A stretch of DNA of 64,000 nt from Candidatus Caldarchaeum sp. (GCA_038885755.1 JAVZZH010000001.1:1-64000), one strand, 5' to 3'. Shown: positions 5,720-22,384, counted from the first letter of the stretch. Numbers and translations are program-made. The notes: generated from the sequence alone by a model not told the origin.

Positions 5720-6796
5720 ATGGCGAAGAGACCGGCTGCGAAACCAACCTACGTGGGCAAACTTCAAGGAAGAGACTTCCTGAATACAAACGACTTTAGC
5801 CAAGAGGAGATAAACAACATACTCAAAGCAGCTAGGGACTTGAGGCAGAGGTTCAGGGCGAAGAAACCAACCGACTATCTCAAAGGCCAGACGCTTTTCA
5901 TGCTCTTCTACAACAGGTCTCTCAGAACCCGAAACTCGTTCGAGGCGGGCATCTACCAGCTGGGAGGCCACGCACACTTCCTAAGCCCCTCAGACGTCTA
6001 CACTCCAACCCTGCCAGAGGACATGATACCGTACCAGACAGAGTCGATAGCGGATGTTGCACGAGTGCTAAGCACTTACGGCGACGCCATAGCCGTCAGA
6101 ATCTACGGAGATGCCGCGAAATGGCACATCGGGAGAGGGCACAGAGTGATTCAGGAGTTCGCCAAGTGGAGCAGCGTTCCCGTCCTCAACATGGAGGACG
6201 ACATCTACCACCCCTTCCAAGCGCTGGCCGACATAATGGCGATAACAGATGTAGCGCCTAAACCTCAGGGGAAGAAGTTCGTCGTCTCCTACGCATACTC
6301 AGGCGGTTTGAAGCCGCTGGCCGTTCCTCAAAGCTGCATCCTGATAGGTACTCAGTTCGGCATGGACGTGGTGCTAGCCCACCCACCCGGCTTCGAGCTC
6401 GAGGACCACGTGATAGAGGCGTGCAGGAAAAACGTCGAGAAGTACGGCGGCTCTTTCACAATATCCCACGACATGAAAGAGGCGTTCGAGGGCGCTGACT
6501 TCGTATACCCCAAGGCATGGTCTCCGAAGAAGTTCTTCCCACCCTACAACTCCATCGTAGACAAAGAAGGCGCCACAAAATACCAAGACGGCTACAAGAG
6601 CTGGATATGCACCCAGGAACTGATGGACCTGACAAACAAGGGTAAGTATATGCATTGCGGCCCAGCCGACAGAGGGCAGGAGGTTGTCGACGAAGTTATC
6701 GACAACCCCAGCTACTCGCTGTATTTCCAGCAGGCTGAGAACAGGCTCCACGTCCAGAAAGCCGTGATGTCGATGGTTATGGGTCGCAGGAGATGA
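5720..6796 (+). CDS. Carbamoyltransferase, YgeW/AOTCase-like
   Basis: FYNRSLRTRNSFE, HPFQALAD, YAYSGGLKPLAVPQS (resembles YgeW WAYSPSYGKPLSVPQ), HCGPADRGQEV, QAENRLH. Confidence 0.85.
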   Translation: MAKRPAAKPTYVGKLQGRDFLNTNDFSQEEINNILKAARDLRQRFRAKKPTDYLKGQTLFMLFYNRSLRTRNSFEAGIYQLGGHAHFLSPSDVYTPTLPEDMIPYQTESIADVARVLSTYGDAIAVRIYGDAAKWHIGRGHRVIQEFAKWSSVPVLNMEDDIYHPFQALADIMAITDVAPKPQGKKFVVSYAYSGGLKPLAVPQSCILIGTQFGMDVVLAHPPGFELEDHVIEACRKNVEKYGGSFTISHDMKEAFEGADFVYPKAWSPKKFFPPYNSIVDKEGATKYQDGYKSWICTQELMDLTNKGKYMHCGPADRGQEVVDEVIDNPSYSLYFQQAENRLHVQKAVMSMVMGRRR

Positions 6797-7821
6797 AGAT
6801 CCACGACGACGTTCTGGACCTCATAGGGGGCACGCCGCTCCTCAAGCTGTCGAGGATTCCGAGGGAGGAGGGCGTTGAGGCCGAGGTCTACGCCAAGCTG
6901 GAGTTCTACAACCCGACGGGAAGCCTCAAGGACAGGATCTACAGGGAGATGATCACTAAGGCTGTCGAGAGGGGAGACCTCAGGCCAGGCATGGAGATCC
7001 TCGAGGTATCGACGGGCAACGCAGGCATAGCCTGCAGCTTCGTAGGCACTCATCTAGGCTACAGGGTGACGATCGTGATGCCTGAGGGGATGAGCGAGGA
7101 AAGAAAACAGCTTATCAAGGCTTTCGGAGGCGAGCTCGTCTTCACGCCCGGCGCCGAGAGCGACGTCGACCTCAGCCTGAAGAAGGCTGAGTCTATGATG
7201 GCCTCGAGCCCGGGAAAGTACTGGTTCCCCAACCAGTTCACGAACCCCGACAACGTGCAGGCCCACGTCAAGACGACGGGGCCCGAGATATGGGACCAGT
7301 CAGGAGGTAAAGTCGACTGCTTCGTCATGTCGCAGGGCTCTGGCGGAACGGTCTCAGGGGTGGGCAGGTTTCTGAAGAGCAAGAACCCCAGCATAAAAGT
7401 CTACACGGCTGAGCCAAGCGAGGCCCCTATAATATCGGACGGCGTCTGGGGCTCGCACAAGATCGAGGGTATTGGAGACGGGTTCATTCCACGCAACCTA
7501 GACCTAGGAGTCCTCGACGGAGTCGTGACAGTGTCTTCGGCCGAGTCGATAGAGATGACGAAGAAGCTCGCGAGGCTGGAGGGAGTTTTCTGCGGCATTT
7601 CATCCGGATGCAACGTCGCAGCAGCCATCAAGGTCGCCAAGAGACATCCACGTCTCCGCCGTATCATAACTCTGGTCTGCGACTCGGGAAACCGCTATCT
7701 CTCGACAGAAGCCTTCGGCCCCGGCAAGAAAGCCGCTATCCCTGAGCGTGAGCATGTCTTGGACGAGTATACAGTCGAACAGCGGCAGAAGCATCTTTCA
7801 AGGCTGGAAATCGTGAGGTAG
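6793..7821 (+). CDS. PLP-dependent cysteine synthase (CysK/M)-family protein
   Basis: IGGTPL, KLEFYNPTGSLKDR (PLP lysine), HKIEGIGDGFIP, GISSG; substrate loop STGNAG is atypical. Confidence 0.85.
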   Translation: MKIHDDVLDLIGGTPLLKLSRIPREEGVEAEVYAKLEFYNPTGSLKDRIYREMITKAVERGDLRPGMEILEVSTGNAGIACSFVGTHLGYRVTIVMPEGMSEERKQLIKAFGGELVFTPGAESDVDLSLKKAESMMASSPGKYWFPNQFTNPDNVQAHVKTTGPEIWDQSGGKVDCFVMSQGSGGTVSGVGRFLKSKNPSIKVYTAEPSEAPIISDGVWGSHKIEGIGDGFIPRNLDLGVLDGVVTVSSAESIEMTKKLARLEGVFCGISSGCNVAAAIKVAKRHPRLRRIITLVCDSGNRYLSTEAFGPGKKAAIPEREHVLDEYTVEQRQKHLSRLEIVR

Positions 7822-7844: not shown

Positions 7845-8330
7845 ATGAAAACAGGCGTGGATAATAGTGGTGTTTTGACCGACAAAGTTCTCGGCGGCAG
7901 GGTGTTTGTACTGTCTGCGAAGACGTTTGTAGAGACCGTTAAAATGCTGGGCGCCTCGATTTCTCAGCCTGCTGCAGACGCATTGTTCTGGAACATGGGG
8001 CACCGGTATGGTTTGGCGTTGGGCAACAAGTTCAAGGAGAAATCGCCAGACGAGGGCATCATGATCCTATCTGTTGCTGCTATGAACTCCGGCTGGGGTT
8101 TGCCACAAGTGGTGAACAACTACTACTCCGAGGGCGTGATAGAGGTTTCTTTCGAGAACTGTGTATTCTGCGACGGGTTGTCTGGCTCGGACAGCCCCAG
8201 ATGCTACTTCTTAGCTGGGGTTCTCACCGGAATAGCTGAAAGCCTTTATCACGAGCGCTTCAAAACCCTCGAGACCGAATGCATTGCAAAGAACAACCAA
8301 GTCTGCAGGTTCGTAATCCGGAAAGAATGA
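7845..8330 (+). CDS. Stand-alone V4R-domain protein
   Basis: GWG, CVFC, CYFLAGVLTG, ETECIAKNNQVCRF. Confidence 0.8.
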   Translation: MKTGVDNSGVLTDKVLGGRVFVLSAKTFVETVKMLGASISQPAADALFWNMGHRYGLALGNKFKEKSPDEGIMILSVAAMNSGWGLPQVVNNYYSEGVIEVSFENCVFCDGLSGSDSPRCYFLAGVLTGIAESLYHERFKTLETECIAKNNQVCRFVIRKE

Positions 8331-9583
8331 CGGTCTTACGTATGTATGTCGAGAAGCTTGTCTGCTCCCGCTGCGGATCCGAGTACGATATCAGAGAAAG
8401 CCCCGTGATGTGTAGTAAAAATGATTTGGGGAGGTTGGATGTTGTCTATGACTACGACCGGTTGATGGAGAGTCTGTCGAGGGACGGGGTTTCGAGGAGG
8501 AAGATGGGCGGCGTCTGGCGGTACTGGGAGCTCCTGCCAGTCGATAAAAAATTCGCCGCGTCTTTGATGGAGGGCGGCACCCCGTTGGTCAAAGCCACTC
8601 GTCTCGCAAGCCACCTAGGGTTCAAGGCTGTTTACGTCAAGGATGAGACGAGGAACCCTACCGCTTCCTTCAAGGACAGGGCCATGGCTGTTGGCGTCGC
8701 CAAGGCGGTTGAAACTGGACGTAGGGACGTCGTCATAGCTTCCAGCGGGAACGCTGCCTCGTCTCTGGCGGCTTACAGCGCGTCCATGGGCCTGAGGTGC
8801 CATGCGTTCGTCCCCGAGGACGTGTCGACGGGCAAGGCTTCGCAGCTTCTACTTTACGGTGCTAAGGTTCTACGTGTCAGGCAGACAGTCGAGGGCAGAG
8901 ACCCGACCGTCGACCTCATGCTCCAAGCGGTTTCCAAGCTAGGCTGGTATCCCTGCCCCAGCTTCGGCCCCTTCAACCCCTATCAAGTAGAGGGACCCAA
9001 GACGATTGCCTACGAGGTTCTCGAGCAGCTGGGCTGGGTTGTTCCAGACGCCGTTCTCGTTCCCACGGGTTCGGGATGCTTGGCTGCAGGTGTTTGGAAG
9101 GGGTTGAGAGACATGATGCGGCTTGGATGGATAGACAGCTATCCAAAACTCATACCTGTCCAGCCGGCTGGGAACCAGCCTCTAGCAAGAGCCATCAAGA
9201 AGGGAATGAGCTACTCCGAGATCGAGCCGGAGAAAAACCCGCGCTCGATAGCCTCGGGTCTTCTCGACCCGTATCCATGGGACGGGGACGCTGCCATCGA
9301 AGGAGTCAGGGCTACGAACGGCTTCGCCGAGACTGTTGAGGAGGATGAGATCAGGGAATCTGTCCGCTTTCTGGCGAGGTTGGAGGGAATTTTCGCAGAG
9401 CCTTCTGGAGCCGTCGGCGTCCTAGCCGCTAAGAAACTCCTAGACCAAGGGGTTTTAGACCCCTCGGACACGGTGGTAATTCTCGCCACGGGTTCGGGGC
9501 TGAAGGAGCCTGAGAAGGTTGTCTCGGGCGAGACCATTCCAACCATCTCTCCAGACCTCGACAGCCTGTTGAAGTTTTTATAA
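8327..9583 (+). CDS. Threonine synthase-like PLP enzyme (fold type II) with N-terminal Zn ribbon
   Basis: CSRCG, EGGTPL, KDETRNPTASFKDR, SSGNAA, VPTGSG, TGSGLK; ATG at 8327 overlaps the V4R stop (ATGA). Confidence 0.85.
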   Translation: MTVLRMYVEKLVCSRCGSEYDIRESPVMCSKNDLGRLDVVYDYDRLMESLSRDGVSRRKMGGVWRYWELLPVDKKFAASLMEGGTPLVKATRLASHLGFKAVYVKDETRNPTASFKDRAMAVGVAKAVETGRRDVVIASSGNAASSLAAYSASMGLRCHAFVPEDVSTGKASQLLLYGAKVLRVRQTVEGRDPTVDLMLQAVSKLGWYPCPSFGPFNPYQVEGPKTIAYEVLEQLGWVVPDAVLVPTGSGCLAAGVWKGLRDMMRLGWIDSYPKLIPVQPAGNQPLARAIKKGMSYSEIEPEKNPRSIASGLLDPYPWDGDAAIEGVRATNGFAETVEEDEIRESVRFLARLEGIFAEPSGAVGVLAAKKLLDQGVLDPSDTVVILATGSGLKEPEKVVSGETIPTISPDLDSLLKFL

Positions 9584-9603: not shown

Positions 9604-10563
9604 ATGGAAGCGGGCGAGCTGATAGTCGTTGCATTGGGTGGGAATGCTCTTCTACGACGTGGTGAGAAGGGGTCTTTCGAGGAGCAGTACAACAACGTTG
9701 GCAGGACAGCCGTTTTTCTAGCAGACCTCGTTGAGGCCGGGTACAAGCTGGTCATCACACACGGCAACGGTCCTCAGGTGGGGGCCACGCTGCTCCGCCA
9801 CGACGCGGGACATAAACTGCACGGCATACCCGCTTTCCCGATGGATGCTTGCGGAGCTGAAACCCAAGGCTTCATAGGCTACACCATCCAGCAGAACCTC
9901 AGAAACGAGCTGAAGAGGAGAGGAATAGACAAGTATGTCATCACCGTCATCACGCGCGTGATCGTGGACAAGGACGACCCTGCCTTCAAAAACCCTTCCA
10001 AGCCGATTGGTCCTTTCTACAGCAGGGAGGAGATGGAGAAGATTAAGGCGGAGCATCCGGAATTCGTCTTCGCCGAGGACAAGGCCCGCGGAGGATTCAG
10101 GAGAGTTGTGCCGTCGCCGGACCCGAAGATAATCGCCGAAAGACACGCCATAAGGAAGCTTGTGGACTCGGGCTTCATAGTCGTGGCCAGCGGTGGCGGC
10201 GGGATTCCGATAATCGAGGAGAACGGCAGGGCTCAGGGCGTGGAGGCTGTCATCGACAAAGACTTGGCTGGAGAGAAGCTAGCCGAGCTCATCGGTGCCA
10301 GCAGGTTCATCATCCTCACAGACGTGGACGGAGCCTACATCAACTACGGCAAGCCGGACCAGAAGAAGCTGGAAAGGGCGACGGCTAGCGAAGCTAGGCG
10401 GTATCTTGAGGCTGGCCATTTCGCCTCAGGCAGCATGATGCCTAAAGTGCTTGCCTGCATCAGGTTCGTCGAGAACGGCGGGAAAGAAGCCATCATAGCC
10501 GAGCTATCACAGCTGAAGGAAGCCATAGCCGGCAGCGCGGGCACGCACATACTACCGGGATAA
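9604..10563 (+). CDS. arcC: Carbamate kinase
   Basis: VALGGNAL, THGNGPQVG, NPSKPIGPFY, RRVVPSP, GGGGIP, EAVIDKD, GSMMPKV. Confidence 0.95.
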   Translation: MEAGELIVVALGGNALLRRGEKGSFEEQYNNVGRTAVFLADLVEAGYKLVITHGNGPQVGATLLRHDAGHKLHGIPAFPMDACGAETQGFIGYTIQQNLRNELKRRGIDKYVITVITRVIVDKDDPAFKNPSKPIGPFYSREEMEKIKAEHPEFVFAEDKARGGFRRVVPSPDPKIIAERHAIRKLVDSGFIVVASGGGGIPIIEENGRAQGVEAVIDKDLAGEKLAELIGASRFIILTDVDGAYINYGKPDQKKLERATASEARRYLEAGHFASGSMMPKVLACIRFVENGGKEAIIAELSQLKEAIAGSAGTHILPG

Positions 10564-11577
10564 AACTCCCGCTACGAGAGCCAGGATAGCGGCCCTGACG
10601 TAGAGAAGGTTCTCAGCCTGGTCGTATATGACGCTTCTAGGGCCGTCCATGACATCGTCGTCAGCCTCCTGCCCCCTGAAGACCGGCAGCACGTGTGTGA
10701 CGACGCCGTTCTTAGCCATCAAGTCCGTCAGCTGCTTCGTTAGCTTCCAGTCCCTGTGCTTGTTGTGGAGCTCGACCTCCCTCTCCCTGCCAAACCTGTT
10801 CATGCCCGTCATCACACATTCGTGGCTGGCCCAGCTTCTCGGAAAGACAGCGTCAGCCCCGTTGAGAGCCTCTCTGTAGTCGTGAACAATCTCCACGCTG
10901 CCCCCGCTCTCCTCGGCGTTCCTACGAGCCTGCTCAACGATTTTGCCGTCTATGTCGAATCCCGGGGGGTAGGCTAGGACAACGTCCATCCCGAACCTCG
11001 AGGATATGAGCAGCTCGTCCTGAATGCTTCCCCAGCTCCTCACCTTGTCGCTGTAAGCCCACATCAGCACGTATTTCTTCTTCTCCACTCTCCCCAGCTT
11101 CTCCCTCAGGGTGTAAAGGTCTGTGATTGCTTGGCTGGGGTGGTACATGTCGTCAGCCATGTTGATTACAGGGATCTTTGCATGCTCGGCGTACTCCCTG
11201 ACGACGGCGTTGCCTCTCCCGTAAACGTAGTCGACGGCTGACTCGAGTATCCTCACGCCCAGAACCTGTCCAAGCCTCTCGTACATCTTGGCTATGTCCC
11301 GGACGGACTCGCCCTCAGCTCCGCGGGTTGTGGCGAAGTCGATGAACTGAGCATGGCCGCCCAGCATGGTTGCGGCCGCCTCGAAGCTGGCGCGGGTACG
11401 GGTCGACGTGTTGTAGAACAGCATGAACATCGTCCTGTTCTTGAACAATTCAGGAACGTCTCCCGAAGCTCTCTTTATCTTCAACAGCCTAGCCAAGTTC
11501 ATAGTTGCCTCTATTTCCTCGACGCTCCAGTCCTGCGACGAGATTAGGTCTCGACCGTGGAGGTCAAGCAGGGTCAT
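10552..11577 (-). CDS. Second carbamoyltransferase, YgeW/OTCase-like
   Basis: FYNTSTRTRASFE, HPSQAITD, WAYSDK, HVLPVFRGQE, QAEN. Confidence 0.85.
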   Translation of the reverse strand: MTLLDLHGRDLISSQDWSVEEIEATMNLARLLKIKRASGDVPELFKNRTMFMLFYNTSTRTRASFEAAATMLGGHAQFIDFATTRGAEGESVRDIAKMYERLGQVLGVRILESAVDYVYGRGNAVVREYAEHAKIPVINMADDMYHPSQAITDLYTLREKLGRVEKKKYVLMWAYSDKVRSWGSIQDELLISSRFGMDVVLAYPPGFDIDGKIVEQARRNAEESGGSVEIVHDYREALNGADAVFPRSWASHECVMTGMNRFGREREVELHNKHRDWKLTKQLTDLMAKNGVVTHVLPVFRGQEADDDVMDGPRSVIYDQAENLLYVRAAILALVAGVLSR

Positions 11578-11602: not shown

Positions 11603-13924
11603 TTAGGCTTTCTTCAGCGCTTCCAACACAGCGTGGGGCTTCATGGGAAGCTGTCTGACATACACTCCTGTCGCGTGGGCGACTGCGTTGGCTATGGCTG
11701 CGGCTGGAAGAACGACAGGTATCTCGCCCATCGCTTTTGCGCCGAAAACTCCCACGGACCCGGGAACTTCGACGACCAAGCTCTTCATCTCCTTCGGTGC
11801 ATCGCTGGCTGTCGGTATTATGAAAGTGTGGAGGGATGGGTTGACGACGAAGCCTTTTTCGTGGACAACTTCCTCGGTGAGCGCGTATCCGAGACCCATG
11901 ATGCCCCCTCCCTCGTAAACAGCTATCAAGCCCAGCGGGTTTATGGCCCTCCCGACGTCGTAAGCTGCGATAAGCCTTTCAACCTCGACAAACCCGGTCT
12001 CGGTGTCGACGACGACTTCAGCGGCTAAAGCCCCGTAGGTGTACTGGTTGTAGGGAGAGCCTTGGCCCGTCTCAGGGTCCCACTTGGTCGGCGGAGCTAT
12101 GTAGTGGCCTAAGGCCTTCAGCTCGACGCCCTTCTCCCAGCACTGCTGAACGGCCTCCTCCCACTTGACCATCCTGCCCGACGAATGAACAATTAACCCA
12201 TCCCTGAACTCAAGCTCTCTGGCGTCGACTCCCAGAAGCTCCGCGGCCGCAGAAGCTACTTTGGCCTTGATCTTGAGAGCCGCGTCGAGCGCCGCGTTTC
12301 CCCCGATCGCCGTGGTCCTAGATGCTACGGTTGGACCTGAGCTGGGTACTGCGGCTGTGTCGGGCCTCTCGAGCCTGACCTTCGAAAGAGGTAAGCCAAG
12401 CACCTCCGCAACGACTATGATGAGGGATGTTAGGGCGCCTGTGCCGTATTCTGTCAGACCCGTCTGAACGACGACCGTGCCGTCCCTCTCCACCCGTGAG
12501 ACAACGGTCGCGAAGTCGTCTCCCTCAGGACCGAGGGTGTTGCCGTGATACAGGAGAGCTATACCGATGCCTTTCTTCACACTCCTGCTCCGCTTGTTAA
12601 ATTCCTCGAACTCCCTTACCCGCGTCTCCCACGAGGAAGATTCGACGACCAGCCGGTAGCATCTGAGAAGCCCGTCGTCATCGACTCGCTGGCTTGTGGC
12701 GGTAAGAGAACCCGGTCTCAGCATGTTGGCTTCACGGATTTCGAGGGGTGAGAGCCCGATCTCTTCAGCCAGCTCGTTCATCAGCGACTCGGCTGCAAAG
12801 TGTGCTTGAGGAGCGCCGAACCCACGCGTGGACCCTGCCATGGTGTTGTTTGTGTAGACGCAGTAGCCGTCGGCCCAGACGTTGGGAACTTCGTAAGGCC
12901 CTGTGCAGTGGAAAGTCGCCCTGCCTATCACGAGATGACCCTTCGAGACGTAGGCTCCCGTGTCCTCCACCAGAGTAGACTTCCAAGCGATTAGTTTGCC
13001 CTGCTTGGACGCTCCAACCTTGTGAGTTATCTCGAACGGATGCCTCTTGCACTGCACCGTAATAGCCTCGCTCCTAGTGAAAGCTGCCAGCGACGGTCTG
13101 CCCGTGTAGTATGTGGCGAGGCAGGCGTATGCTGCGACGTCGATGGGGGTCTCGTCCGACTTGGGGCCGAACCCGCCTCCGGTGGCTGCTTGAACGACTC
13201 GGAGCTTTTCAGGAGGCAGTCCGAGTATCTGGCGAACCTTGTGGTAGACGTCGTGTAGGTTCTGCATCGAAGATATGCAGGTTATTCCGCCGTCTCCGTC
13301 AGGGTAAGAGTAAGCTATCTCGATTTCAAGGGGAAGACCGGTGATAAACTGAGTCCGGTAGGTTCTTTCTAATACCACATCTGATTGTTTGAAGCCTTGC
13401 TCAACGTCTCCCTTTCTTATCTTGAAGTGGGTGACGATGTTGCCCTTGTCGTGTATGCGTGGCGCTGCGTGGTCCATGGCTTCAGCAGGGCTGGCCACAA
13501 CCGGCAGAGGGTCGTAGTGAACTTCGACGAGGTCTGCGGCCTCCTCAGCGTCCTCCACCGTTTCGCCTACAACCAAGGCGATAGCTTCGCCTACATGCCT
13601 CACCCTGTCCACAGCCAGCAACGGCCTGTCGGGTATGAGGCTTCCAGCATCGTTCTGACCGGGTATTTCACGATGAGTTATGATTTTCTTGACGGAGGGT
13701 CTTCTCTCCAGCTTGCTGAAGTCCACGTTCCTTATCAAGGCGTGGGGAAGCCTCGACCTAACGGCCTTGACGAAGAGGGGTTTCTCGGACACTAGGTCTG
13801 CGGTGTACATGGGTCTTCCGAGGACGGCGTCGACAGCATCCACCCGCGCCACCTTCTTCCCAACCACTAGGAATTCACGAGCCTTCAGGATCTCCTTAAA
13901 CCTCTCAGTAATCTCCTCGCTCAT
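11603..13924 (-). CDS. Xanthine dehydrogenase-family molybdopterin-binding subunit
   Basis: GGGFGPK, RHPF, GSTRGFGAPQ, TEYGTG, TVASRT, GAKAMGE; lacks the CoxL form I AYRCSFR motif. Confidence 0.92.
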   Translation of the reverse strand: MSEEITERFKEILKAREFLVVGKKVARVDAVDAVLGRPMYTADLVSEKPLFVKAVRSRLPHALIRNVDFSKLERRPSVKKIITHREIPGQNDAGSLIPDRPLLAVDRVRHVGEAIALVVGETVEDAEEAADLVEVHYDPLPVVASPAEAMDHAAPRIHDKGNIVTHFKIRKGDVEQGFKQSDVVLERTYRTQFITGLPLEIEIAYSYPDGDGGITCISSMQNLHDVYHKVRQILGLPPEKLRVVQAATGGGFGPKSDETPIDVAAYACLATYYTGRPSLAAFTRSEAITVQCKRHPFEITHKVGASKQGKLIAWKSTLVEDTGAYVSKGHLVIGRATFHCTGPYEVPNVWADGYCVYTNNTMAGSTRGFGAPQAHFAAESLMNELAEEIGLSPLEIREANMLRPGSLTATSQRVDDDGLLRCYRLVVESSSWETRVREFEEFNKRSRSVKKGIGIALLYHGNTLGPEGDDFATVVSRVERDGTVVVQTGLTEYGTGALTSLIIVVAEVLGLPLSKVRLERPDTAAVPSSGPTVASRTTAIGGNAALDAALKIKAKVASAAAELLGVDARELEFRDGLIVHSSGRMVKWEEAVQQCWEKGVELKALGHYIAPPTKWDPETGQGSPYNQYTYGALAAEVVVDTETGFVEVERLIAAYDVGRAINPLGLIAVYEGGGIMGLGYALTEEVVHEKGFVVNPSLHTFIIPTASDAPKEMKSLVVEVPGSVGVFGAKAMGEIPVVLPAAAIANAVAHATGVYVRQLPMKPHAVLEALKKA

Positions 13925-14376
13925 CTATTCCTCGCCCTTTCGAAAGCCTCCACAAACCTCAGGTAGCTTCCGCACCTGCACAGAACGCTTCTGAGTGCGT
14001 GCCTCACCTCCTCGACGGAGGCCGACGGCTTGGTGTCCATCAGGTACTTCAGCACTAGCAACGTTGAAGGAATGCAGAACCCGCACTGAACAGCACCCAC
14101 GTCCACGAAAGCCTGTTGAAGCGGGTGAAGCTTACCGTCCGCGGCCAAACCCTCCACGGTCGTTATCGTCCTGCCTTCAGCTTGGTAAGCCAGCATTAGG
14201 CATGAGTTGACCGGCCTTCCGTCAACCAGCACCACGCAGAGGCCGCAGTCTCCGACCCCGCACCCCTCCTTCACACCCATGAGACCAAGCCGTTTACGGA
14301 GAAGGTCTGTAAGCCTCTCGTTGCTCTCCACGTCGACTGTATAGTCGACGCCGTTAACATTGGTTTTAATCTTCAT
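13921..14376 (-). CDS. Xanthine dehydrogenase-family 2Fe-2S subunit
   Basis: KEGCGVGDCGLC, QCGFC, LCRCG; ATG at 14376. Confidence 0.92.
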   Translation of the reverse strand: MKIKTNVNGVDYTVDVESNERLTDLLRKRLGLMGVKEGCGVGDCGLCVVLVDGRPVNSCLMLAYQAEGRTITTVEGLAADGKLHPLQQAFVDVGAVQCGFCIPSTLLVLKYLMDTKPSASVEEVRHALRSVLCRCGSYLRFVEAFERARNR

Positions 14377-15202
14377 GACCGGCAACCCTCTCCAGAATCC
14401 TCCTGAGCAGCACGCCGGCAACCATGCGCCTGTACCAGGCTGGAGCTATGACGTCATCAGAAGGTCCTATGCTCTGGGAAACCATGTCCCCCGCCTGGGT
14501 ATACGTGGGCTTGTCTAAAAACCTGCCTTGTAGGAATTTTTCAACGGAGTGAACCCTGCCGGGCTTGTTCCTGCTTTTGTGGGAGACAGCGACCCTCGGC
14601 TCCTCATCTAAGCTGACGGCAACCGAGATTATCGGGATGCGTGAAACCCCTAGCCGCAGCTTTTCGAAGAAACACTTCCTCCTTCTGCGAAACACTACCT
14701 TGGTAAGCAGCGCTCGCTTGTTAATGTTCTGGTCGAGAAATTCTTGCAGCGCCACGCGTTCTTCACCTCTAACTGTCTGAAAAACCAGCTCGGCGTCGAG
14801 AGTCAGCAGTATGGGTATCAGGTCCTCGGAGCAGTTTCTGAGCATGATGCTTCCTCCGACGGTCGCCCTGTTCATGACTGAAGGAGATGAGTAGCATTTG
14901 AGGAATGACTTGAAGGCTGGAATGCTGTCTCGCAGCGCTTCGGCAACCTCGGCGTGAGTAGTCAGCGCTCCCACCTCGACGAGGGAGGAGTCGTTCCTTA
15001 TGAAACGCAGGTGCTTCAGTCCAGAAACGTCGAGGAGCTTCCTCGTCTTGTTGACGCCTTCGACGATAGACGGTATCGTATATGTACCTCCAGCGAGCAC
15101 GGTTCTGTCAGGCTCCCGGTCTATCGTTTGAAGAGCTTCTTCCAAGCTCTTCGCCACGAAGACGTCCAGCCGGGGCAGGCTTACGTACCCCAGATCGGTC
15201 AT
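14366..15202 (-). CDS. Xanthine dehydrogenase-family FAD-binding subunit (YgfM/CoxM-like)
   Basis: LAGGT, VGALTT, NRATVGG, AWYRR; located in the xdh operon. Confidence 0.85.
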   Translation of the reverse strand: MTDLGYVSLPRLDVFVAKSLEEALQTIDREPDRTVLAGGTYTIPSIVEGVNKTRKLLDVSGLKHLRFIRNDSSLVEVGALTTHAEVAEALRDSIPAFKSFLKCYSSPSVMNRATVGGSIMLRNCSEDLIPILLTLDAELVFQTVRGEERVALQEFLDQNINKRALLTKVVFRRRRKCFFEKLRLGVSRIPIISVAVSLDEEPRVAVSHKSRNKPGRVHSVEKFLQGRFLDKPTYTQAGDMVSQSIGPSDDVIAPAWYRRMVAGVLLRRILERVAGHED

Positions 15203-16566
15203 TTCTTCATCATCAGGGGCTCAACCGCTTCCCGAGGCCGTTCAGTCAACCGCTGCCACAGCTTCTCGATGGTTTTCATCACGGTCTTCTCGGCGTTCTC
15301 CTTGTCGACCTTCGTAAGACGTCGGTTTTGTACAACCTGCTCGCCGTCGACGAACACATGCAAGACATCTCTCCCGCTGACGCCGTTAACCAAGTATCCG
15401 TAGATGTTGCCTGTCATGGGGACTGCGGAAACCTCCGGCCTCACAACTATGATGTCTGCCTTGTTGCCGGCTTCGAGAGACCCTTGGTCTTTAAGGCTGT
15501 AAGCCCGGGCTGCGTTGATTGTCGCCATTTCAACGACTTGCTGGGCGGAGATAATCGAGGGGTTCCGACGTTCGAGCCTGTGAACTAGGAAGGTTGCTCG
15601 CATGTTTTCAAACCCGTCGAAGACGTATCCGTCGTTGCCTATGCCTACGTTGACGCCTGCCTCAAGCATCTCCGGCAGCTTCATCACTCCTACGGCGTTG
15701 AGCATGTTGCTCATGGGGTTGTGGGCTACGTGGGTTCCCGTCGAAGCCAGAAGCCCGACTTCACGCTTGTCGAGATGGACGCAGTGAGCTAGGACGGCGT
15801 TGCTTCCCAAAACTCCTTTCATGTGCAGCCTTTCAACGGTCCTAACGCCGTATCTTTCGATGTTGTGGTAGACGTCGTTAGGGCCCTCCGATACATGGAT
15901 GGTCAAGGCGGCCTTGTGCTTCCTCGCAGCTTCAACCCCCTTGGCTATCAGTTCATCGGTTATCGTGAAGGATGCGTGAAGGCTTATCATGCCCATGGCG
16001 AGGCCCATTCCACCCTTCTCCAAAAACCGGACGTTTTCCTTCAGTCCTCTCTCGCCCTCCTCCACGCTCCTCCTCTCCGTCGCCTCGAAAGAGATAATGC
16101 CTCTGATGCCGACCTCGTTCACTGCTTTCGCTATGGCGTCGAGCGAGCCCTCCGGGTTTTGAGGCGCTGAATAGGTGTCTGCGAAGGTCGTGGTGCCGTT
16201 AAGAAGCATTTCCATCGAGGCGGCGAGAGCGGTGGCGTAGGCGTCGTCGTTGTTCATCTTCTCGTCGAGCGGCCACCAGACCCTCTGAAGGTTCTCGAGA
16301 AAATCGGAGCTCGGTTTGATGTTCAGAGAGGCTCCCCGTAAAGCTATTCCGTAAAGATGAGTGTGGGCGCATACAAGCCCGGGCATGACGATACAGCCGC
16401 TTGCATCAACAACCCTGTCGTACTCGCTGCTCCTCACCTGTCCAGCGTCGCCGACAAAAACTATCCGCCCATCCTCGAACCCGACAGCCCCGTTCTGCAG
16501 AACCCTTCTCGAAGAGTCCATCGAGACTACCACGCCGCCTTTTATCAGGGTTTTTTCAGAACCCAT
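15199..16566 (-). CDS. SsnA-like metal-dependent amidohydrolase (TRZ/ATZ family)
   Basis: PGLVCAHTHLY, FLENLQRVWWPLD, LHASFT, IHVSE, AHCVH, NPMSN, GIGND. Confidence 0.85.
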   Translation of the reverse strand: MGSEKTLIKGGVVVSMDSSRRVLQNGAVGFEDGRIVFVGDAGQVRSSEYDRVVDASGCIVMPGLVCAHTHLYGIALRGASLNIKPSSDFLENLQRVWWPLDEKMNNDDAYATALAASMEMLLNGTTTFADTYSAPQNPEGSLDAIAKAVNEVGIRGIISFEATERRSVEEGERGLKENVRFLEKGGMGLAMGMISLHASFTITDELIAKGVEAARKHKAALTIHVSEGPNDVYHNIERYGVRTVERLHMKGVLGSNAVLAHCVHLDKREVGLLASTGTHVAHNPMSNMLNAVGVMKLPEMLEAGVNVGIGNDGYVFDGFENMRATFLVHRLERRNPSIISAQQVVEMATINAARAYSLKDQGSLEAGNKADIIVVRPEVSAVPMTGNIYGYLVNGVSGRDVLHVFVDGEQVVQNRRLTKVDKENAEKTVMKTIEKLWQRLTERPREAVEPLMMKK

Positions 16567-16569
16567 CTG

Positions 16570-17577
16570 CTACACCTTAGCGATACTTTTGATGACGTAT
16601 TCAACGTTCCCGCTGAGGGGGAGCAAGAGGGGAGAGGTGCAGCCATGCGCCATGTACTCCTTCACCTTAGCCACCACGTCCGAAACCGTGCCCGAAGCAG
16701 TGATCATACGGACAACCTCGTCGGGAACGATCTCAGCAGCCTTCTCAATACCGCCCGGCTTAGCTGGCCAGCCCCCCATAACCCTCTGAACCTCCTGAAT
16801 CAAGTCCTCGCTGACACCGCTAGCCTTCATGATGTGAGGCTGCTGTCCGAGAGTCATCGTCACATGCTTCTTAGCGAGCTTCACAGCCTTGTCCGCATCC
16901 TCATCCATCGAGCAGGCCACAAGCTGAGGCCTGTCGATGTCCTCGACCCTTCTTCCCGACTTTTCGGCACCCTTCCTTATGTGTTCGAGGGCTGTGTCGT
17001 TGTACTTGGGTGAGACTAGGTAGTTGAGAAGGACTCCGTCAGCTATCTCACCCGCCAGCTCCATCATCTTCCAGCCCGTCGCCCCGACGTAGATCGGTAT
17101 GTTCCTAGGCTTCTCCCCTGCACCGTGAAGGACGTCAAGCCTTACACCTCTAAGCTTTACGAACTTACCCTCGAAACTAACCTCCTCCATTCTGAACAGT
17201 CTTCTGATCGTTTCGACGTACTCCCTCATGCATGTGAGCGGCTCCCTTCTCTCAATACCGACCTTCCAAGCCAGCGGGTCCCACCAAGCACCAAGCCCCA
17301 GCATGACCCTGCCGTCTGAAAGCTCATCCATCGTGGCGAAGGTCTGGGCGATGAGCGCGGCGTTTCTAGTCCAGGTGTTTATGACGCCGGCGCCCACCTT
17401 CAGCCGGGATGTGACTGTGGCTATGGCTGTCATAGGAGTCAGAGCATCCCTGGCGAGCCTCGACTCAGCTATCCAAGCCGACTCAAAACCGTTCTGCTCA
17501 CCCAGCTGGGCGTACCTGACCATATCCCTAACATGCATGTCCTGTAGATACAGACCCCATCTGACGTTCATGCACAT
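16570..17577 (-). CDS. LLM-class (Mer-like, probably F420-dependent) oxidoreductase
   Basis: GFESAWIAE, TMDELSDGRVMLGLGA, IPIYVGATG.KMMELAGEIADGVLLN. Confidence 0.85.
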   Translation of the reverse strand: MCMNVRWGLYLQDMHVRDMVRYAQLGEQNGFESAWIAESRLARDALTPMTAIATVTSRLKVGAGVINTWTRNAALIAQTFATMDELSDGRVMLGLGAWWDPLAWKVGIERREPLTCMREYVETIRRLFRMEEVSFEGKFVKLRGVRLDVLHGAGEKPRNIPIYVGATGWKMMELAGEIADGVLLNYLVSPKYNDTALEHIRKGAEKSGRRVEDIDRPQLVACSMDEDADKAVKLAKKHVTMTLGQQPHIMKASGVSEDLIQEVQRVMGGWPAKPGGIEKAAEIVPDEVVRMITASGTVSDVVAKVKEYMAHGCTSPLLLPLSGNVEYVIKSIAKV

Positions 17578-17603
17578 TAGTAATGGAACTTTAGTTATTT
17601 ATT

Positions 17604-17621
17604 CTTTGTCGATAGACAAAG
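17604..17621. promoter_or_regulatory. Palindromic candidate operator between divergent promoters
   Basis: CTTTGTC-GATA-GACAAAG, a perfect 7-bp inverted repeat flanked by TATA-like boxes on both strands (TTATAT at 17623; TTATTTATT at 17595). Confidence 0.55.
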
Positions 17622-17654
17622 GTTATATCAGCGCAGGGATTGTATCGCTGAGTA

Positions 17655-19439
17655 ATGACAAGGACGAAGCTGTACAGCGTGTCTAAAGACCTTGTTAGGA
17701 CAGCTTTGGGTCTGGAGAAGGCGGACTTGGTTGTTAGGGGCGGGAGCTTGATTAACGTACATACTAGGGAGCTTGTTGAGAACGTGGATGTGGTGGTCAA
17801 GCACGGTAGGGTCGCACTCGTCGGCGACGCATCGCCTTGCATAGGGTCGGGCACGCTTGTTTACGACGCTGATGGCAAGTACCTCGTTCCCGGACTGATA
17901 GACCCTCACGTTCACATAGAAAGCTCCATGGTCGGCGTGACCGAGTTCGCCAGAATAGTTCTTCCCCACGGTACGACGACCGTTTTCATCGACCCCCATG
18001 AGATAGGCAACGTCTTCGGGTTCGACGGAGTGAAGCTGATGGTTGACGAGTCGAGGAACCTGCCTCTCAAGGTGTTCATCACCTATCCCTCCTGCGTTCC
18101 AGCTGCACCGGGGTTCGAGACCGCTGGGGCGGCAATAGGGCCTGAGGAGGTGGGTGAAGCCATGAAGCTGGAGGAGGTAGTTGCTCTCGGCGAGATGATG
18201 AACTATCCGGGGGTGCTCGCATGCGACGACAACGTCCATGCAGAGATAGCGGAGGCTTTGAGGGCTGGAAAGCTCGTCGAGGGCCATGACTCGGGGTTGA
18301 TGGGTAGGGAGCTGGCGGCTTACGTCGCCGCCGGAGTGATGTCAACCCATGAAAGCGTCTCCAAAAGCCAGACTCTTGAACGCTTGCGAAACGGCATGTA
18401 TGTTTATTTGAGGGAGGGGAGTGCTTGGCTCGACATCAAAGACACGGTCAGAGCCTACACAGAGACAGGCATAGACCCGCGCCACATATGTCTGTGCACA
18501 GACGACAAGGAGCCGGCCTCGATAATCAGGGACGGACACATGGACCACTGTCTCAGGAGGGCGGTTGAGGAGGGGGTGGACCCGCTGACGGCTGTGCAGA
18601 TGTGCACGATCAACCCTGCCGAGCGGTACCGGATGGCTCACGAGATAGGAAGCATCTCACCAGCACGCATAGCCGACATATTAGTCGTGTCAGACCTCAC
18701 TAAGTTCAAGGTCGAAGCTGTGTTCGCCGACGGGGAACTCGTTGCAAAGCAGGGAAGGCTTTTGAAGACCATGCCGGACTACCGCTACCCGGATGTTTTC
18801 ACGAAAAGCGTCAAGCTAGGGCGGGTGCTGCGGCCGGAGGACTTCGTTATCCACTCAAAGCATGAACAGGGCGAAGTTAGGGCACGTGTGATCCAAGCCG
18901 TCGAAGGCAGCGTAATCACGAAGCACGTCATAGAGAAGATGGAGGTCTCCAAGCATAGCATTAGCGGAGACCCGGATAGAAGCATTTTGAAGACAGCAGT
19001 GATAGAGAGGCATGGAAAATCAGGCGGAATGAGCCTCGGGCTGACTAAAGGGTTTGGGTTCAGGAAGGGAGCTGTTTCCTCGACGGTAGCCCACGACAGC
19101 CACAACCTTCTAGTGATTGGCTACGACGAGAAGGACATGGCTCTGGCGGCTAACGAGAACGCACGGATCAACGGAGGCATCGTGACCGTTGCTGACGGCG
19201 AGGTGGTTGCGCGAGTCGAGCTGTCTCTGGCGGGGTTGATGTCGACGGAGACGGCGGAGCGGGTGGCTGATAAGCTCAACAAAACCTACAGCGTGTGGAG
19301 GAGGCTTGGATGCGAATGGGTCTCGCCTTTCATGACGATGTCGTTGCTCAGCCTCAGCGTAATACCCGAGCTCCGGATAACGGACAGAGGATTGCTCGAC
19401 ACGGTGACGTTCCAGTTCGTCGAACTCGTGTTGGATTAG
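17655..19439 (+). CDS. ade: Adenine deaminase (AdeC type)
   Basis: PGLIDPHVHIESSM, DPHEIGNV, LGEMMNYPGV, LREGSA, CTDD, STVAHDSHNL, LSLSVIPELRITDRGL. Confidence 0.93.
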   Translation: MTRTKLYSVSKDLVRTALGLEKADLVVRGGSLINVHTRELVENVDVVVKHGRVALVGDASPCIGSGTLVYDADGKYLVPGLIDPHVHIESSMVGVTEFARIVLPHGTTTVFIDPHEIGNVFGFDGVKLMVDESRNLPLKVFITYPSCVPAAPGFETAGAAIGPEEVGEAMKLEEVVALGEMMNYPGVLACDDNVHAEIAEALRAGKLVEGHDSGLMGRELAAYVAAGVMSTHESVSKSQTLERLRNGMYVYLREGSAWLDIKDTVRAYTETGIDPRHICLCTDDKEPASIIRDGHMDHCLRRAVEEGVDPLTAVQMCTINPAERYRMAHEIGSISPARIADILVVSDLTKFKVEAVFADGELVAKQGRLLKTMPDYRYPDVFTKSVKLGRVLRPEDFVIHSKHEQGEVRARVIQAVEGSVITKHVIEKMEVSKHSISGDPDRSILKTAVIERHGKSGGMSLGLTKGFGFRKGAVSSTVAHDSHNLLVIGYDEKDMALAANENARINGGIVTVADGEVVARVELSLAGLMSTETAERVADKLNKTYSVWRRLGCEWVSPFMTMSLLSLSVIPELRITDRGLLDTVTFQFVELVLD

Positions 19440-19475: not shown

Positions 19476-20798
19476 TTGATGAATGAAAAGCAAGGAATAT
19501 CGAGGCGTAAGTTCCTAGCTGTTTCCTCTGGAGTAGCGGCCGGGTCTGTCGCCGCCGCAGCTGTCGTAGGCGGTCTCGCCGGGTATTTTGCTGGTGTTTC
19601 CCAAGCACCTCCAGCCACAACTAGGACAGTGACTACGCCCGGTGCCACAGTGACGATGACCGCGCCCCCGAAGAGGTTGAAGGTTGGCTACATCTACGTA
19701 GGTCCTGTGGGAGACTTTGGATGGACTTACGCCCACAACGAAGGAAGAAAGTGGGCTGATTCGATGTTCAAGAACGTTGACAGCTCCTACATAGAGAGTG
19801 TTCCTGAAGCGGAGTCGGCTGGGGCGATAGAGTCGCTTATAAACCAAGGAGCTGACTTGGTCATAACCACTAGCTTCGGATACATGGACCAGACGGCTGA
19901 AGTAGCTGCAAAGCATCCCGACAAGTATTTTGTACACATATCTGGATACAGAAGCGGAGCAGCTGGCAACGCTCCTCAAAACATGAGCAGCGCCTTCGCC
20001 GAGTTTTATCAACTATACTACCTGAACGGTCTGGCAGCAGGAGCGGTCACTCAAACAGGTGTCGTGGGCTACGTGGCAGCTCACCCCATTCCCGAGGTAG
20101 TACGACACATAAACGCGTTCGTCATCGGAGCAAACTACTCCTACAAAAAACGAACAGGCCGAAACATCCGAGCATACGTAAACTGGTTGTTCAGCTGGTT
20201 CGACCCGGGGAAGACACGACAGGCCGCAACAGCTCTAGTTGAGGAGTCCAACGCAGACGTTTTGGCTTTCACCGAAGACTCGCCGACAACGCTACAGGTT
20301 GCGGAGGAATACACCACTCGTAAGGGGAGGAGGGTGTGGAGCTTCAGCCACTACGGAGACATGACGCAGTACGGCCCGAACTCTCATCTCACGGGGCAGA
20401 TCGTACACTGGGGGCCCATCTACCTAGACTTTTACAGAATGGTCGCCACCAACACATGGCGGTCCGTAGACATATGGACCCGGATAGGAGACTACATGCC
20501 CTACAGATGGAGAAGGCCCGTTGACAAGAGCACGGCGGGACAGGTTGACGGAACGCTGCAGCTGGGAAAGCTCAACCCAGCTATCCCCAGCGAGTGGCAG
20601 ACAGAGATAAAGAAGCGGTACGAGGAGATGAAGGAGCTGCTATTCGAGCCTTTCAGCGTAGAGGGCAACGGAGGCGAACCCATCAGGGACCAGAAAGGCG
20701 AAGTAAGGATAAGCGGTACCCAGCGAGCCGACTGGGACATGCTATGGAACATGGACTGGTTCGTCGAATACATCTTGAGCGAGCTACCTAGAGGATAG
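19476..20798 (+). CDS. BMP-family nucleoside/purine ABC substrate-binding protein with Tat signal
   Basis: SRRKFL Tat motif, T/P-rich linker, IYVGPVGDFGWTYAH, TTSFGY, IPEVVRHINAF, SWFDP. Confidence 0.9.
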   Translation: MMNEKQGISRRKFLAVSSGVAAGSVAAAAVVGGLAGYFAGVSQAPPATTRTVTTPGATVTMTAPPKRLKVGYIYVGPVGDFGWTYAHNEGRKWADSMFKNVDSSYIESVPEAESAGAIESLINQGADLVITTSFGYMDQTAEVAAKHPDKYFVHISGYRSGAAGNAPQNMSSAFAEFYQLYYLNGLAAGAVTQTGVVGYVAAHPIPEVVRHINAFVIGANYSYKKRTGRNIRAYVNWLFSWFDPGKTRQAATALVEESNADVLAFTEDSPTTLQVAEEYTTRKGRRVWSFSHYGDMTQYGPNSHLTGQIVHWGPIYLDFYRMVATNTWRSVDIWTRIGDYMPYRWRRPVDKSTAGQVDGTLQLGKLNPAIPSEWQTEIKKRYEEMKELLFEPFSVEGNGGEPIRDQKGEVRISGTQRADWDMLWNMDWFVEYILSELPRG

Positions 20799-20851
20799 CG
20801 GCTTAACCTCCACAAATTTTTTATTCCCAACAATAGAATCTTGGTGGGAGA

Positions 20852-22384
20852 ATGGGCGAGGAGGAATACTTAGTGGAGATGACCGGGATTGTGAAGAAGT
20901 TTCCCAACGTGGTGGCGAACGACAACGCATGCTTCACGCTTAAACGTGGAGAGGTTCACGCTCTTCTAGGCGAGAACGGGGCGGGCAAAACAACCCTGAT
21001 GAACATACTGTACGGCATCTACCGCCCCGACGCCGGCACGATAAAGGTTTACGGAAAACCGGTCGTCATCAGAGGCCCGAAGGACGCTATCCAGCTGGGC
21101 ATAGGAATGGTCCACCAGCAGTTTAAGCTCATCCCCGTGCACACCGTGCTCGAAAACGTCGTCCTAGGAATCAAGCAAACAGGCTTCGTCCTCAACACGA
21201 GAAAAATAAGCCAAGACCTGTCGCAGATGATCTCCAGCTATGGATGGAAAATATCGCCGGATGCCAGAGTGTGGCAGCTTTCAGCCGGCGAGAAGCAGCA
21301 GGTCGAGCTTTTGAAGGCTTTGTACAGAAGAGCTAGGATACTCATAATGGACGAGCCGACCTCGGTCTTGACGCCTCAAGAGACGAGCGTTCTATTCAAA
21401 ACGCTGCGGAAGATGGCTGCTGAAGGGCTTGGCGTGGTGCTGATAACTCACAAGCTCGACGAAGTGATGGCTGTGAGCGACAGGGTCACGGTCATGCGGG
21501 CTGGACGAACTGTCGCCACAAAGCCGACGAAAGAAACCAGCATAGAGGATCTGGTCAACATGATGATAGGGCGACCCTTGATTAAGATACAAACACCAAG
21601 GGTGATTGCTAGGAACAAGCCTGTGCTGGAAGTGTCCAGCCTCGTAGTCCTGAACGACAAAGGGTTGGAGGCTGTCCGAAGGGTCTCATTCAAGCTTTAT
21701 GAGGGAGAGATTCTAGGCGTGGCTGGTGTTTCGGGCAACGGGCAGCAAGAGCTCCTCGAAGCGATAGCCGGGTTGAGGAAAGCAGTCTCGGGTAGAGTTT
21801 TTCTCAACTCGGCTGACATAACAAACCGCCATCCACTAGAGATAATCAACGCAGGAGTGGCCTACATTCCAGCCGAATCCTTGAGATATTCTGCGCCTGA
21901 CATGACGGTCGCCGAAAACCTCTTCCTCAAAGCGTACAGGCTGAGAGAATTCTCCAATGGCTTTTTAATCAACTGGCGCAACTTGGAGGAAAAATCGAGA
22001 CAACTCATCAAAGACTTTAACATCGTGACTCCTTCCACGCGCAACAAGGTCGGAAACCTGTCAGGCGGCAACGTGCAGAGACTCGTGCTGGCAAGAGAGC
22101 TGGAAACCATTCCAGACCTTAAAGTAATTCTTGCAGGCTATCCCACTAGAGGGCTTGACATCGCCTCGACGGAGTTCATCCATCAGATGCTGCTGAAAAA
22201 GACTGACCGGGGGGTTGCTGTTCTTCTAGTTTCTGAGGAGCTCGAGGAGCTTATGTCCTTGAGCGATAGGATTATGGTGATGTACAAGGGTGAGGTGGTG
22301 GGCGTTTTGGAGAGAGGACGGTATGATCTGGAGGAGATTGGCCTGATGATGACAGGCGTCAGAAGGGAGGAAGTGAGCGCTTGA
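20852..22384 (+). CDS. Nucleoside ABC transporter ATPase (two NBDs)
   Basis: GENGAGKTT, GMVHQQF, DEPTSVL, GVSGNGQ, LSGGNVQ, PTRGLD. Confidence 0.93.
   Translation: MGEEEYLVEMTGIVKKFPNVVANDNACFTLKRGEVHALLGENGAGKTTLMNILYGIYRPDAGTIKVYGKPVVIRGPKDAIQLGIGMVHQQFKLIPVHTVLENVVLGIKQTGFVLNTRKISQDLSQMISSYGWKISPDARVWQLSAGEKQQVELLKALYRRARILIMDEPTSVLTPQETSVLFKTLRKMAAEGLGVVLITHKLDEVMAVSDRVTVMRAGRTVATKPTKETSIEDLVNMMIGRPLIKIQTPRVIARNKPVLEVSSLVVLNDKGLEAVRRVSFKLYEGEILGVAGVSGNGQQELLEAIAGLRKAVSGRVFLNSADITNRHPLEIINAGVAYIPAESLRYSAPDMTVAENLFLKAYRLREFSNGFLINWRNLEEKSRQLIKDFNIVTPSTRNKVGNLSGGNVQRLVLARELETIPDLKVILAGYPTRGLDIASTEFIHQMLLKKTDRGVAVLLVSEELEELMSLSDRIMVMYKGEVVGVLERGRYDLEEIGLMMTGVRREEVSA

Follow-up and report, generated by a model that had tools for sequence, protein, structure and literature searches.

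The first 64,000 nucleotides of contig C1 of a Candidatus Caldarchaeum genome (GCA_038885755.1, JAVZZH010000001.1:1-64000; 1.33 Mb in 10 contigs, 86.5% complete), referred to below as the window, contain a minus-strand operon that begins with the gene of a 335-amino-acid luciferase-like oxidoreductase (LLM; 16570..17577, PF00296). In the reading favored here, which is held with moderate confidence, this Mer-like protein of the F420 class is a reductase dependent on reduced coenzyme F420 (F420H2) and acts on the oxopurine ring in the role of YgfK, in an archaeal form of reductive purine/urate degradation. Its gene is positioned 3 nt upstream of the gene for an SsnA-like amidohydrolase, which is the slot of ygfK in E. 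coli. We infer which cofactor is used, which way the reaction runs, what its substrate is and how every later step is assigned; by analogy the substrate would be 2,8-dioxopurine. The first-pass annotation had proposed an F420-dependent purine reductase in the YgfK slot; position, F420 class and conservation bear this out in part, and 2,8-dioxopurine stays an analogy.

In E. coli the genes ygfK-ssnA-ygfM-xdhD, with ygeW-ygeX-ygeY-hyuA-yqeA, encode the reductive uric-acid (2,8-dioxopurine) pathway, as described in the available text of Li et al. 2025 and of the commentary PMC12990295. According to the same portion of Li et al. 2025, YgfK and SsnA convert 2,8-dioxopurine jointly, and the product of YgfK is obtained only with SsnA present, because, in the view of those authors, the thermodynamics of the step are unfavorable. 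The archaeal operon resembles this cluster in that the reductase gene lies directly 5' of a gene for an SsnA-type amidohydrolase and is followed by FAD and molybdenum/iron-sulfur (Mo/FeS) components, in having carbamoyltransferase and carbamate kinase genes nearby, and in its context of purine uptake and deamination. The reductases themselves differ, as the LLM is unrelated to YgfK, an Fe-S flavoprotein of 1032 residues.

The minus-strand order of LLM, SsnA-like protein, FAD, 2Fe-2S and Mo subunits that was noted in the first-pass annotation is confirmed by the open reading frames, domains and coordinates, as is the E. coli order ygfK-ssnA-ygfM-xdhD in the annotated K-12 record. The SsnA-like amidohydrolase, a candidate ring-opening hydrolase of 455 residues with SsnA (NF005540) as its best NCBIfam match, is encoded at 15199..16566. 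It is followed by the three components of a xanthine-dehydrogenase-family (XDH) enzyme: the FAD-binding subunit (14366..15202; PF00941, PF03450), the 2Fe-2S subunit (13921..14421 from a TTG start or 13921..14376 from an ATG start; PF01799, PF00111 and translation) and the molybdopterin-binding large (Mo) subunit of 773 residues (11603..13924; PF01315, PF02738, PF20256). The ATG at 14376 is likely the true start of the 2Fe-2S subunit. All junctions are tight or overlapping, with a gap of 3 nt between the LLM and SsnA-like genes, an overlap of 4 nt between the SsnA-like and FAD genes, one of 11 nt (ATG start) or 56 nt (TTG start) between the FAD and 2Fe-2S genes, and one of 4 nt between the 2Fe-2S and Mo genes. 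Of the five genes, four fall within the span 13921-17577, to which the operon had been assigned at first; that of the Mo subunit (11603-13924) is outside this span.

Contigs from the RNA libraries of one study, about 95% alike in sequence, cover 25 and 29 of the 30 bins of the stretch 13921-17700, and some of them span the SsnA-like/LLM junction. The last bin, 17575-17700, has no cover in either RNA run and the DNA run continues through it; these are contigs only and give no evidence of a transcript start. Such contigs cannot prove transcription, and they lend weak backing to the proposed role.

Class and fold of the LLM

The LLM scores 233.4 bits against PF00296, for which the cut-off is 27.9. 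Its best 16 NCBIfam rows are all LLM families of the F420/Mer type, with E-values from 1e-61 down to 6e-17, and the best FMN family, alkanesulfonate monooxygenase, has an E-value of 7e-16. The top row is TIGR03555, the family of methylene-tetrahydromethanopterin reductase (Mer), at 209.2 bits versus a cut-off of 348.7; the Mer equivalog NF002619 gives 206.5 versus 276. The nearest solved structures by sequence are Mer (E-value 4e-53) and Fgd (5e-20), with SsuD (2e-13) and RutA (7e-5) further away.

An AlphaFold2 model of the LLM, built from 39 orthologues and having a predicted local distance difference test score (pLDDT) of 91.1, was compared with known structures by Foldseek. The closest likeness is to the Mer enzyme jMer (PDB code 8QPL; Gehl et al. 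2024), which is 35% identical in sequence; the template-modeling (TM) score against jMer with F420 is 0.88. All matches listed to rank 29 are F420 enzymes with TM scores of 0.75-0.88 (0.85-0.88 for Mer), whereas FMN enzymes first appear at rank 32, with TM scores of about 0.69-0.76.

According to the available text of Gehl et al. 2024, Gly61-Val62 of jMer forms a non-prolyl cis-peptide, the "backstop" beneath F420. Residues G64-V65 of the LLM align with this site and are invariant in the 39 orthologues, so a similar backstop is predicted from the alignment; the carboxamide at jMer position 178 is also kept. Other positions distinguish the two enzymes. The pterin-binding Asp96 of jMer aligns with Trp99 of the LLM, and the catalytic Glu6 would correspond to Leu9 or Tyr10, an extrapolation as the printed alignment begins at jMer residue 10. 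The orthologue group of the LLM has invariant motifs of its own, such as GLYLQ, AESR, AWWDP and GQQPH.

Judged by family scores, nearest solved relatives and predicted fold, the LLM belongs to the F420 class, and the choice between an F420 and an FMN clade left open in the first-pass annotation falls to F420. Twelve LLM paralogues are encoded in the 1.33-Mb source genome. One of them, also of the F420 class, is found at C2:43769-48884, where a gene for a 507-residue SagB-type (nitroreductase-family) dehydrogenase is divergent from it and a gene for an amidohydrolase of the allantoinase/dihydroorotase type comes next after it. In the ESM Atlas clusters nearest to the LLM of the window, LLMs are commonest in Actinomycetota and Chloroflexota, which serves as a lead only.

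Association with the SsnA-like amidohydrolase

Among 76 Caldarchaeales genomes, orthologues of the LLM (at least 77% identity) and of the SsnA-like protein (at least 62%) occur in the same 27, which represent six genera. The two genes are no more than 520 nt apart in 24 of these, and in the other three each gene sits at the end of a contig. As these genomes are kin, no statistical test of this co-occurrence was applied.

Through the SsnA-like protein, 80 loci were fetched; they come from the archaeal SsnA-like clade only, with bona fide SsnA, YgfK and Chloroflexota loci outside the sample. The SsnA-like protein is at least 59% identical in 31 of them, and 28 of the 31 have an LLM gene directly upstream on the same strand; the upstream DNA of the remaining three is shorter than 300 nt. 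The arrangement is not due to chance. The 28 linked loci include some of Nitrososphaerales and Calditenuaceae with a quite different layout of the genes for XDH, hydantoinase, carbamoyltransferase and kinase. A paralogous pair, LLM2/SsnA2, is adjacent in eight genomes. No YgfK was found over the cut-off in any of the 76 Caldarchaeales genomes, and E. coli YgfK had no match in the 80 loci. That LLM and YgfK exclude each other at true ssnA loci is taken from the available text of Li et al. 2025.

An LLM orthologue with 62-64% identity is present in all five Bathyarchaeia genomes that were checked. In two of the three fetched regions it lies, at 62% identity, beside an adenine deaminase gene and XDH-family operons, which ties the LLM to purines independently of SsnA. 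In these regions (L103:3192-10219 and L104:5878-14743) the LLM gene has the adenine deaminase gene on one side and one or two operons of the XDH family on the other, and the SsnA-like gene is far away.

The SsnA-like protein shares 30% identity with SsnA of E. coli. It reaches 355.6 bits on NF005540 (cut-off 444) and 328.4 on TIGR03314 (cut-off 455.5), while E. coli SsnA reaches 709.6 and 737.9 on the same models. Outside its own 50%-identity cluster, 29 of the 40 best representatives pass the NF005540 cut-off and seven more have NF005540 as their best match, so its nearest relatives there are mostly true SsnA proteins. The metal and catalytic residues (HxH, His, HxxE and Asp) are conserved: H68, H70, H197, H224 and D312 do not vary between SsnA and SsnA-like proteins, and E227 hardly does.

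Replacement of YgfK by other reductases has been proposed before. In the available text of Li et al. 2025 (Life Metab), Chloroflexota clusters are predicted to contain an F420-dependent "yanthine reductase", a PF00296 LLM that replaces YgfK/UacX beside SsnA, put forward without an assay. The idea put forward in the first-pass annotation had thus been in print before. The prediction for Chloroflexota was drawn from an IPR017700 network of bacteria alone, and the available text nowhere uses the word "archaea". The archaeal case is similar in having a PF00296 LLM in place of YgfK. UacX of C. difficile, a PydA-like FMN reductase that replaces YgfK (same portion of Li et al. 2025), is a precedent for non-homologous reductases matched to the redox carrier of the host; it has a different fold from the LLM (PF01180) and its presumed donor is ferredoxin. 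A full-text search, with supplements outside its scope, found SsnA linked with F420 only in Li et al. 2025, and no link between Aigarchaeota, F420 and purines was found in the literature as far as its text was available.

The purine-catabolic island and the proposed route

The LLM operon is part of a purine-catabolic island in a Caldarchaeales genome. The window carries archaeal markers, namely an A-type ATPase, archaeal RNA polymerase subunits, GGGP synthase and an archaeal-type phosphoenolpyruvate (PEP) carboxylase, and the named relatives nearest to its proteins are "Candidatus Caldarchaeum" metagenome-assembled genomes (MAGs).

Downstream of the Mo subunit gene, after a gap of 25 nt, the minus strand encodes carbamoyltransferase 1 (10552..11577; PF02729, PF00185), which is assigned a YgeW-like role and shares 30.5% identity with YgeW of E. 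coli in a tblastn comparison. The following genes are on the plus strand. They encode a carbamate kinase (9604..10563; TIGR00746, 425 bits versus a cut-off of 358), a ThrC-like pyridoxal phosphate (PLP) enzyme (8279..9583; PF00291), which is present in 16 of the 31 related loci, a V4R-domain protein that is a possible regulator (7845..8330; PF02830), a CysK-like PLP enzyme (6793..7821; TIGR01136, 348.7 bits) and carbamoyltransferase 2 (5720..6796; PF02729, PF00185), which is 38% identical to carbamoyltransferase 1. The genes for carbamoyltransferase 2 and the CysK-like enzyme share 4 nt, and the two recur in the company of the ThrC-like gene at loci of Caldarchaeales and Nitrososphaerales. In E. 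coli, the place taken here by the second carbamoyltransferase belongs to the peptidase YgeY. The CysK-like and ThrC-like enzymes were considered as orthologues of YgeX and rejected, as their likeness to it is weak and at the level of the superfamily.

On the other side of the operon, a divergent intergenic region of 77 bp (17578..17654, from the sequence) separates the LLM gene from the plus-strand gene of an adenine deaminase (17655..19439; TIGR01178, 556.6 bits, above cut-off). This is followed on the same strand by the genes of a BMP/PnrA-type ABC transporter, which comprises a binding protein, an ATPase and two permeases (19476..24431; PF02608, PF00005, PF02653). The gene for the PEP carboxylase (window 24433-26007; TIGR02751, 526 bits) begins directly 3' of the final permease gene of this purine-type transporter.

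The Mo subunit shares 31% identity with XdhA of E. coli and 29% with XdhD. The FeS and Mo parts are fused in XdhD and are separate subunits here. Eleven large subunits of the XDH/carbon monoxide dehydrogenase type are encoded in the source genome, and the closest paralogue of the Mo subunit, with 41.5% identity, adjoins a HyuA-like hydantoinase gene; this second FAD/FeS/Mo enzyme of the XDH family is located at C1:571333-576262. Two hydantoinases in the source genome score over the cut-off, and both are encoded outside the window. One is the neighbor of the second XDH-family enzyme just named; the gene of the other, at C1:156722-159376, stands beside that of an M20 peptidase, resembling ygeY-hyuA of E. 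coli. A HyuA-like gene is present in 17 of the 31 related loci.

Paralogous modules recur. A triad of Mo large subunit, amidohydrolase and F420-type LLM is found in the source genome at C1:308444-312932, where the LLM is over the cut-off of TIGR03619 and the gene of an ABC binding protein is next to it. A Mo/SsnA2/LLM2 triad is found in the same-genus genome G009 (C1:361530-367552), and such a triad occurs in eight relatives. These triads probably serve other N-heterocycles.

In the proposed route, purines would be imported by the BMP-type ABC transporter, adenine would be deaminated, and the three-subunit molybdenum enzyme would alter the oxidation pattern of the purine. The LLM would then transfer a hydride from F420H2 to the oxopurine, by analogy 2,8-dioxopurine, and so dearomatize the ring, while Fno (F420H2:NADP+ oxidoreductase) would recharge F420 to F420H2 using NADPH. 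The SsnA-like amidohydrolase, presumably co-translated, would open the reduced ring at once and thereby pull the unfavorable reduction forward. Finally, a hydantoinase encoded elsewhere in the genome, the two carbamoyltransferases and the carbamate kinase would turn the ureido groups into carbamoyl phosphate and ATP. If the intermediate is a diureido compound, each of its two ureido groups could be cleaved phosphorolytically by the two carbamoyltransferases with the one kinase.

Cofactor supply, competing explanations and significance

A number of observations weigh against the role proposed here for the LLM. They concern the supply of F420, the match of the LLM to known families, the substrate and the reach of the gene linkage, and an F420-dependent purine reductase is not known from any biochemical work.

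The source genome encodes, above curated cut-offs, cofC (C4:109692-110246), cofD (C4:110279-111181), cofE (C1:492590-493333) and Fno/npdG (C3:155129-155743). For the Fo synthase genes, cofG has no match in this 86.5%-complete genome and cofH has only a match of 19.8 bits, under the cut-off. Of the F420 synthesis genes on which the first-pass annotation let its proposal depend, one part is thus present and the part that makes Fo is not found. Among 41 relatives, cofH is over the cut-off in just one, and two same-genus genomes that are 99% complete lack it, while cofE is over the cut-off in 40 of the same set, and the absence of Fo synthase is therefore not an assembly gap. Five further genomes holding the LLM/SsnA-like pair, one of which is apparently already among the 41, have no cofH over the cut-off; four have cofE over it, and the cofE of the fifth is a fragment at a contig edge. 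With cofC, cofD, cofE and Fno kept and cofG and cofH not found, F420 would have to be made from salvaged Fo or with another Fo synthase. The use of F420 is plausible only on these terms, and Fo uptake is unproven. No relevant literature was found on Fo scavenging in connection with cofG, cofH and cofE. Across the order, the retention of the genes that build the F420 tail without Fo synthase suggests Fo salvage or a novel Fo synthase.

The LLM passes the cut-off of no NCBIfam family, its best score being the 209.2 versus 348.7 given above, so it falls in no defined F420 family. A quick tree from IQ-TREE has 32 rows in its bona fide SsnA clade (SH-aLRT 100) and leaves the SsnA-like protein outside, in an archaeal clade of 14 rows beside it. 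"SsnA-like" is the proper name for the protein, since it is below the SsnA cut-offs and outside the SsnA clade; the label of the first-pass annotation is right about the nearest family, and it would go too far if taken as membership in SsnA, to which the archaeal proteins are a sister clade.

A multiple alignment shows that the Arg of the RGFG motif, which is Gln in XdhD, is retained in the Mo subunit and in XdhA; this Arg we take to be equivalent to bovine Arg880. The 11-residue insertion that is found only in XdhD and carries E606 is absent from the Mo subunit. In the available text of Li et al. 2025, E606 is linked to the formation of 2,8-dioxopurine. An assignment of the Mo subunit to the XdhD type is not supported, on the same grounds, and an Asp placed opposite E606 by pairwise comparison is an alignment artefact. 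Because the subunit lacks these hallmarks, formation of 2,8-dioxopurine by it is unsupported here. According to the available text of the commentary PMC12990295, a clostridial enzyme of different build performs the same 2,8-dioxopurine-forming reaction, and the hallmarks of XdhD are therefore possibly specific to E. coli and not universal. No hydantoinase is encoded within the 64-kb window, and no YgeX orthologue was found in the source genome or among the PLP enzymes of the island.

The linkage with the amidohydrolase gene, strong within Nitrososphaerota, fails in the sister clade, which limits the conservation beside ssnA that the first-pass annotation had set as a test. This clade is represented by 49 loci with identities of 49-55%, from Bathyarchaeia, Thorarchaeota, Promethearchaeota and a few bacteria; none has an adjacent LLM on the same strand, and one carries a divergent LLM. 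The Bathyarchaeia LLM is unlinked to the SsnA-like gene in all five genomes: the distance is 125-381 kb in four, and in the fifth the two genes are on different contigs. The function of the sister-clade SsnA-like proteins may differ from that of the window protein. Their genes have other partners at loci L042, L047, L050, L061, L052, L067, L075 and L081 (around position 10001 in each), which include a Methylomirabilota MAG. These partners include a hydantoinase-like gene with MocA and XdhC, a thioredoxin reductase (TrxR)-like flavoprotein that comes with a CBS protein, fusions of the NUDIX-IF-2B kind, and an Amidohydro_2 gene together with HEAT-repeat or unknown proteins.

The main rival to the proposed role, much less probable than it, keeps the LLM with F420 in purine catabolism and gives it another substrate or step: xanthine, urate, 6,8-dioxopurine or a ring-opened imine, or the work of a dehydrogenase that reduces F420. 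It draws on the likeness of the Mo subunit to ordinary XdhA-type hydroxylases at the Arg motif and its lack of the XdhD insertion, on the sister-clade position of the SsnA-like enzyme, which may take a different substrate, on the paralogous triads, which imply several substrates, and on the Bathyarchaeia LLM that accompanies adenine deaminase and XDH genes with no SsnA-like gene beside them. However, two carbamoyltransferases with a carbamate kinase fit the diureido intermediate of the published pathway, and the tight coupling of the LLM and SsnA-like genes mirrors the dependence of YgfK on SsnA in vitro.

It is improbable that the LLM uses FMN or free Fo, for example as a RutA-like oxygenase that depends on a flavin and acts on the ring by cleavage or hydroxylation. 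The lack of Fo synthase in the source genome and nearly the whole order would be consistent with such a cofactor, as would the failure to pass any F420 family cut-off and the presence of RutA, a pyrimidine ring-cleaving enzyme, in the same superfamily. However, F420 enzymes are far ahead of FMN enzymes both by sequence and by fold, RutA itself matches with an E-value of only 7e-5, and the retention of cofE in 40 of 41 relatives, together with cofC, cofD and Fno, would be pointless without a deazaflavin. Hardly credible is a genuine Mer of C1 (one-carbon) metabolism that stands at this position by accident. The Mer models are the top family matches and the JGI annotation labels the homologues as Mer, but the protein is far under both Mer cut-offs, Leu9 or Tyr10 and Trp99 stand opposite Glu6 and Asp96 of jMer, the clade has motifs of its own, and the LLM strictly co-occurs with the SsnA-like gene; the identification as a genuine Mer was therefore rejected.

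What is new here is the lineage-wide pattern of cofE present and cofH absent, the co-occurrence of the LLM with the SsnA-like gene in 27 of 27 genomes, the paralogous Mo/amidohydrolase/LLM triads, the unlinked and purine-associated LLM of Bathyarchaeia, and a Mo subunit without the hallmarks of XdhD. It is tentatively hypothesized that the paralogous modules of "molybdenum hydroxylase + F420-type LLM + amidohydrolase" in Caldarchaeales and related Nitrososphaerota serve N-heterocycles in general, purines among them, by a hydroxylate-reduce-open route, and that this route runs on a deazaflavin which the cells do not make themselves, as Fo auxotrophs fed by the Fo of their community.

If the LLM does reduce an oxopurine with F420H2, this would be a new reaction type for coenzyme F420. 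It would also add to YgfK and UacX a third, non-homologous answer to the dearomatizing step of anaerobic purine breakdown, which is thermodynamically difficult. A pathway that was solved only in 2025 in gut bacteria would then extend to thermophilic and soil archaea. The claim is directly testable in vitro with a small pair of enzymes of 335 and 455 residues. That Fo synthase is missing where F420-type enzymes abound points to cross-feeding of the cofactor within the communities of hot springs and soils.

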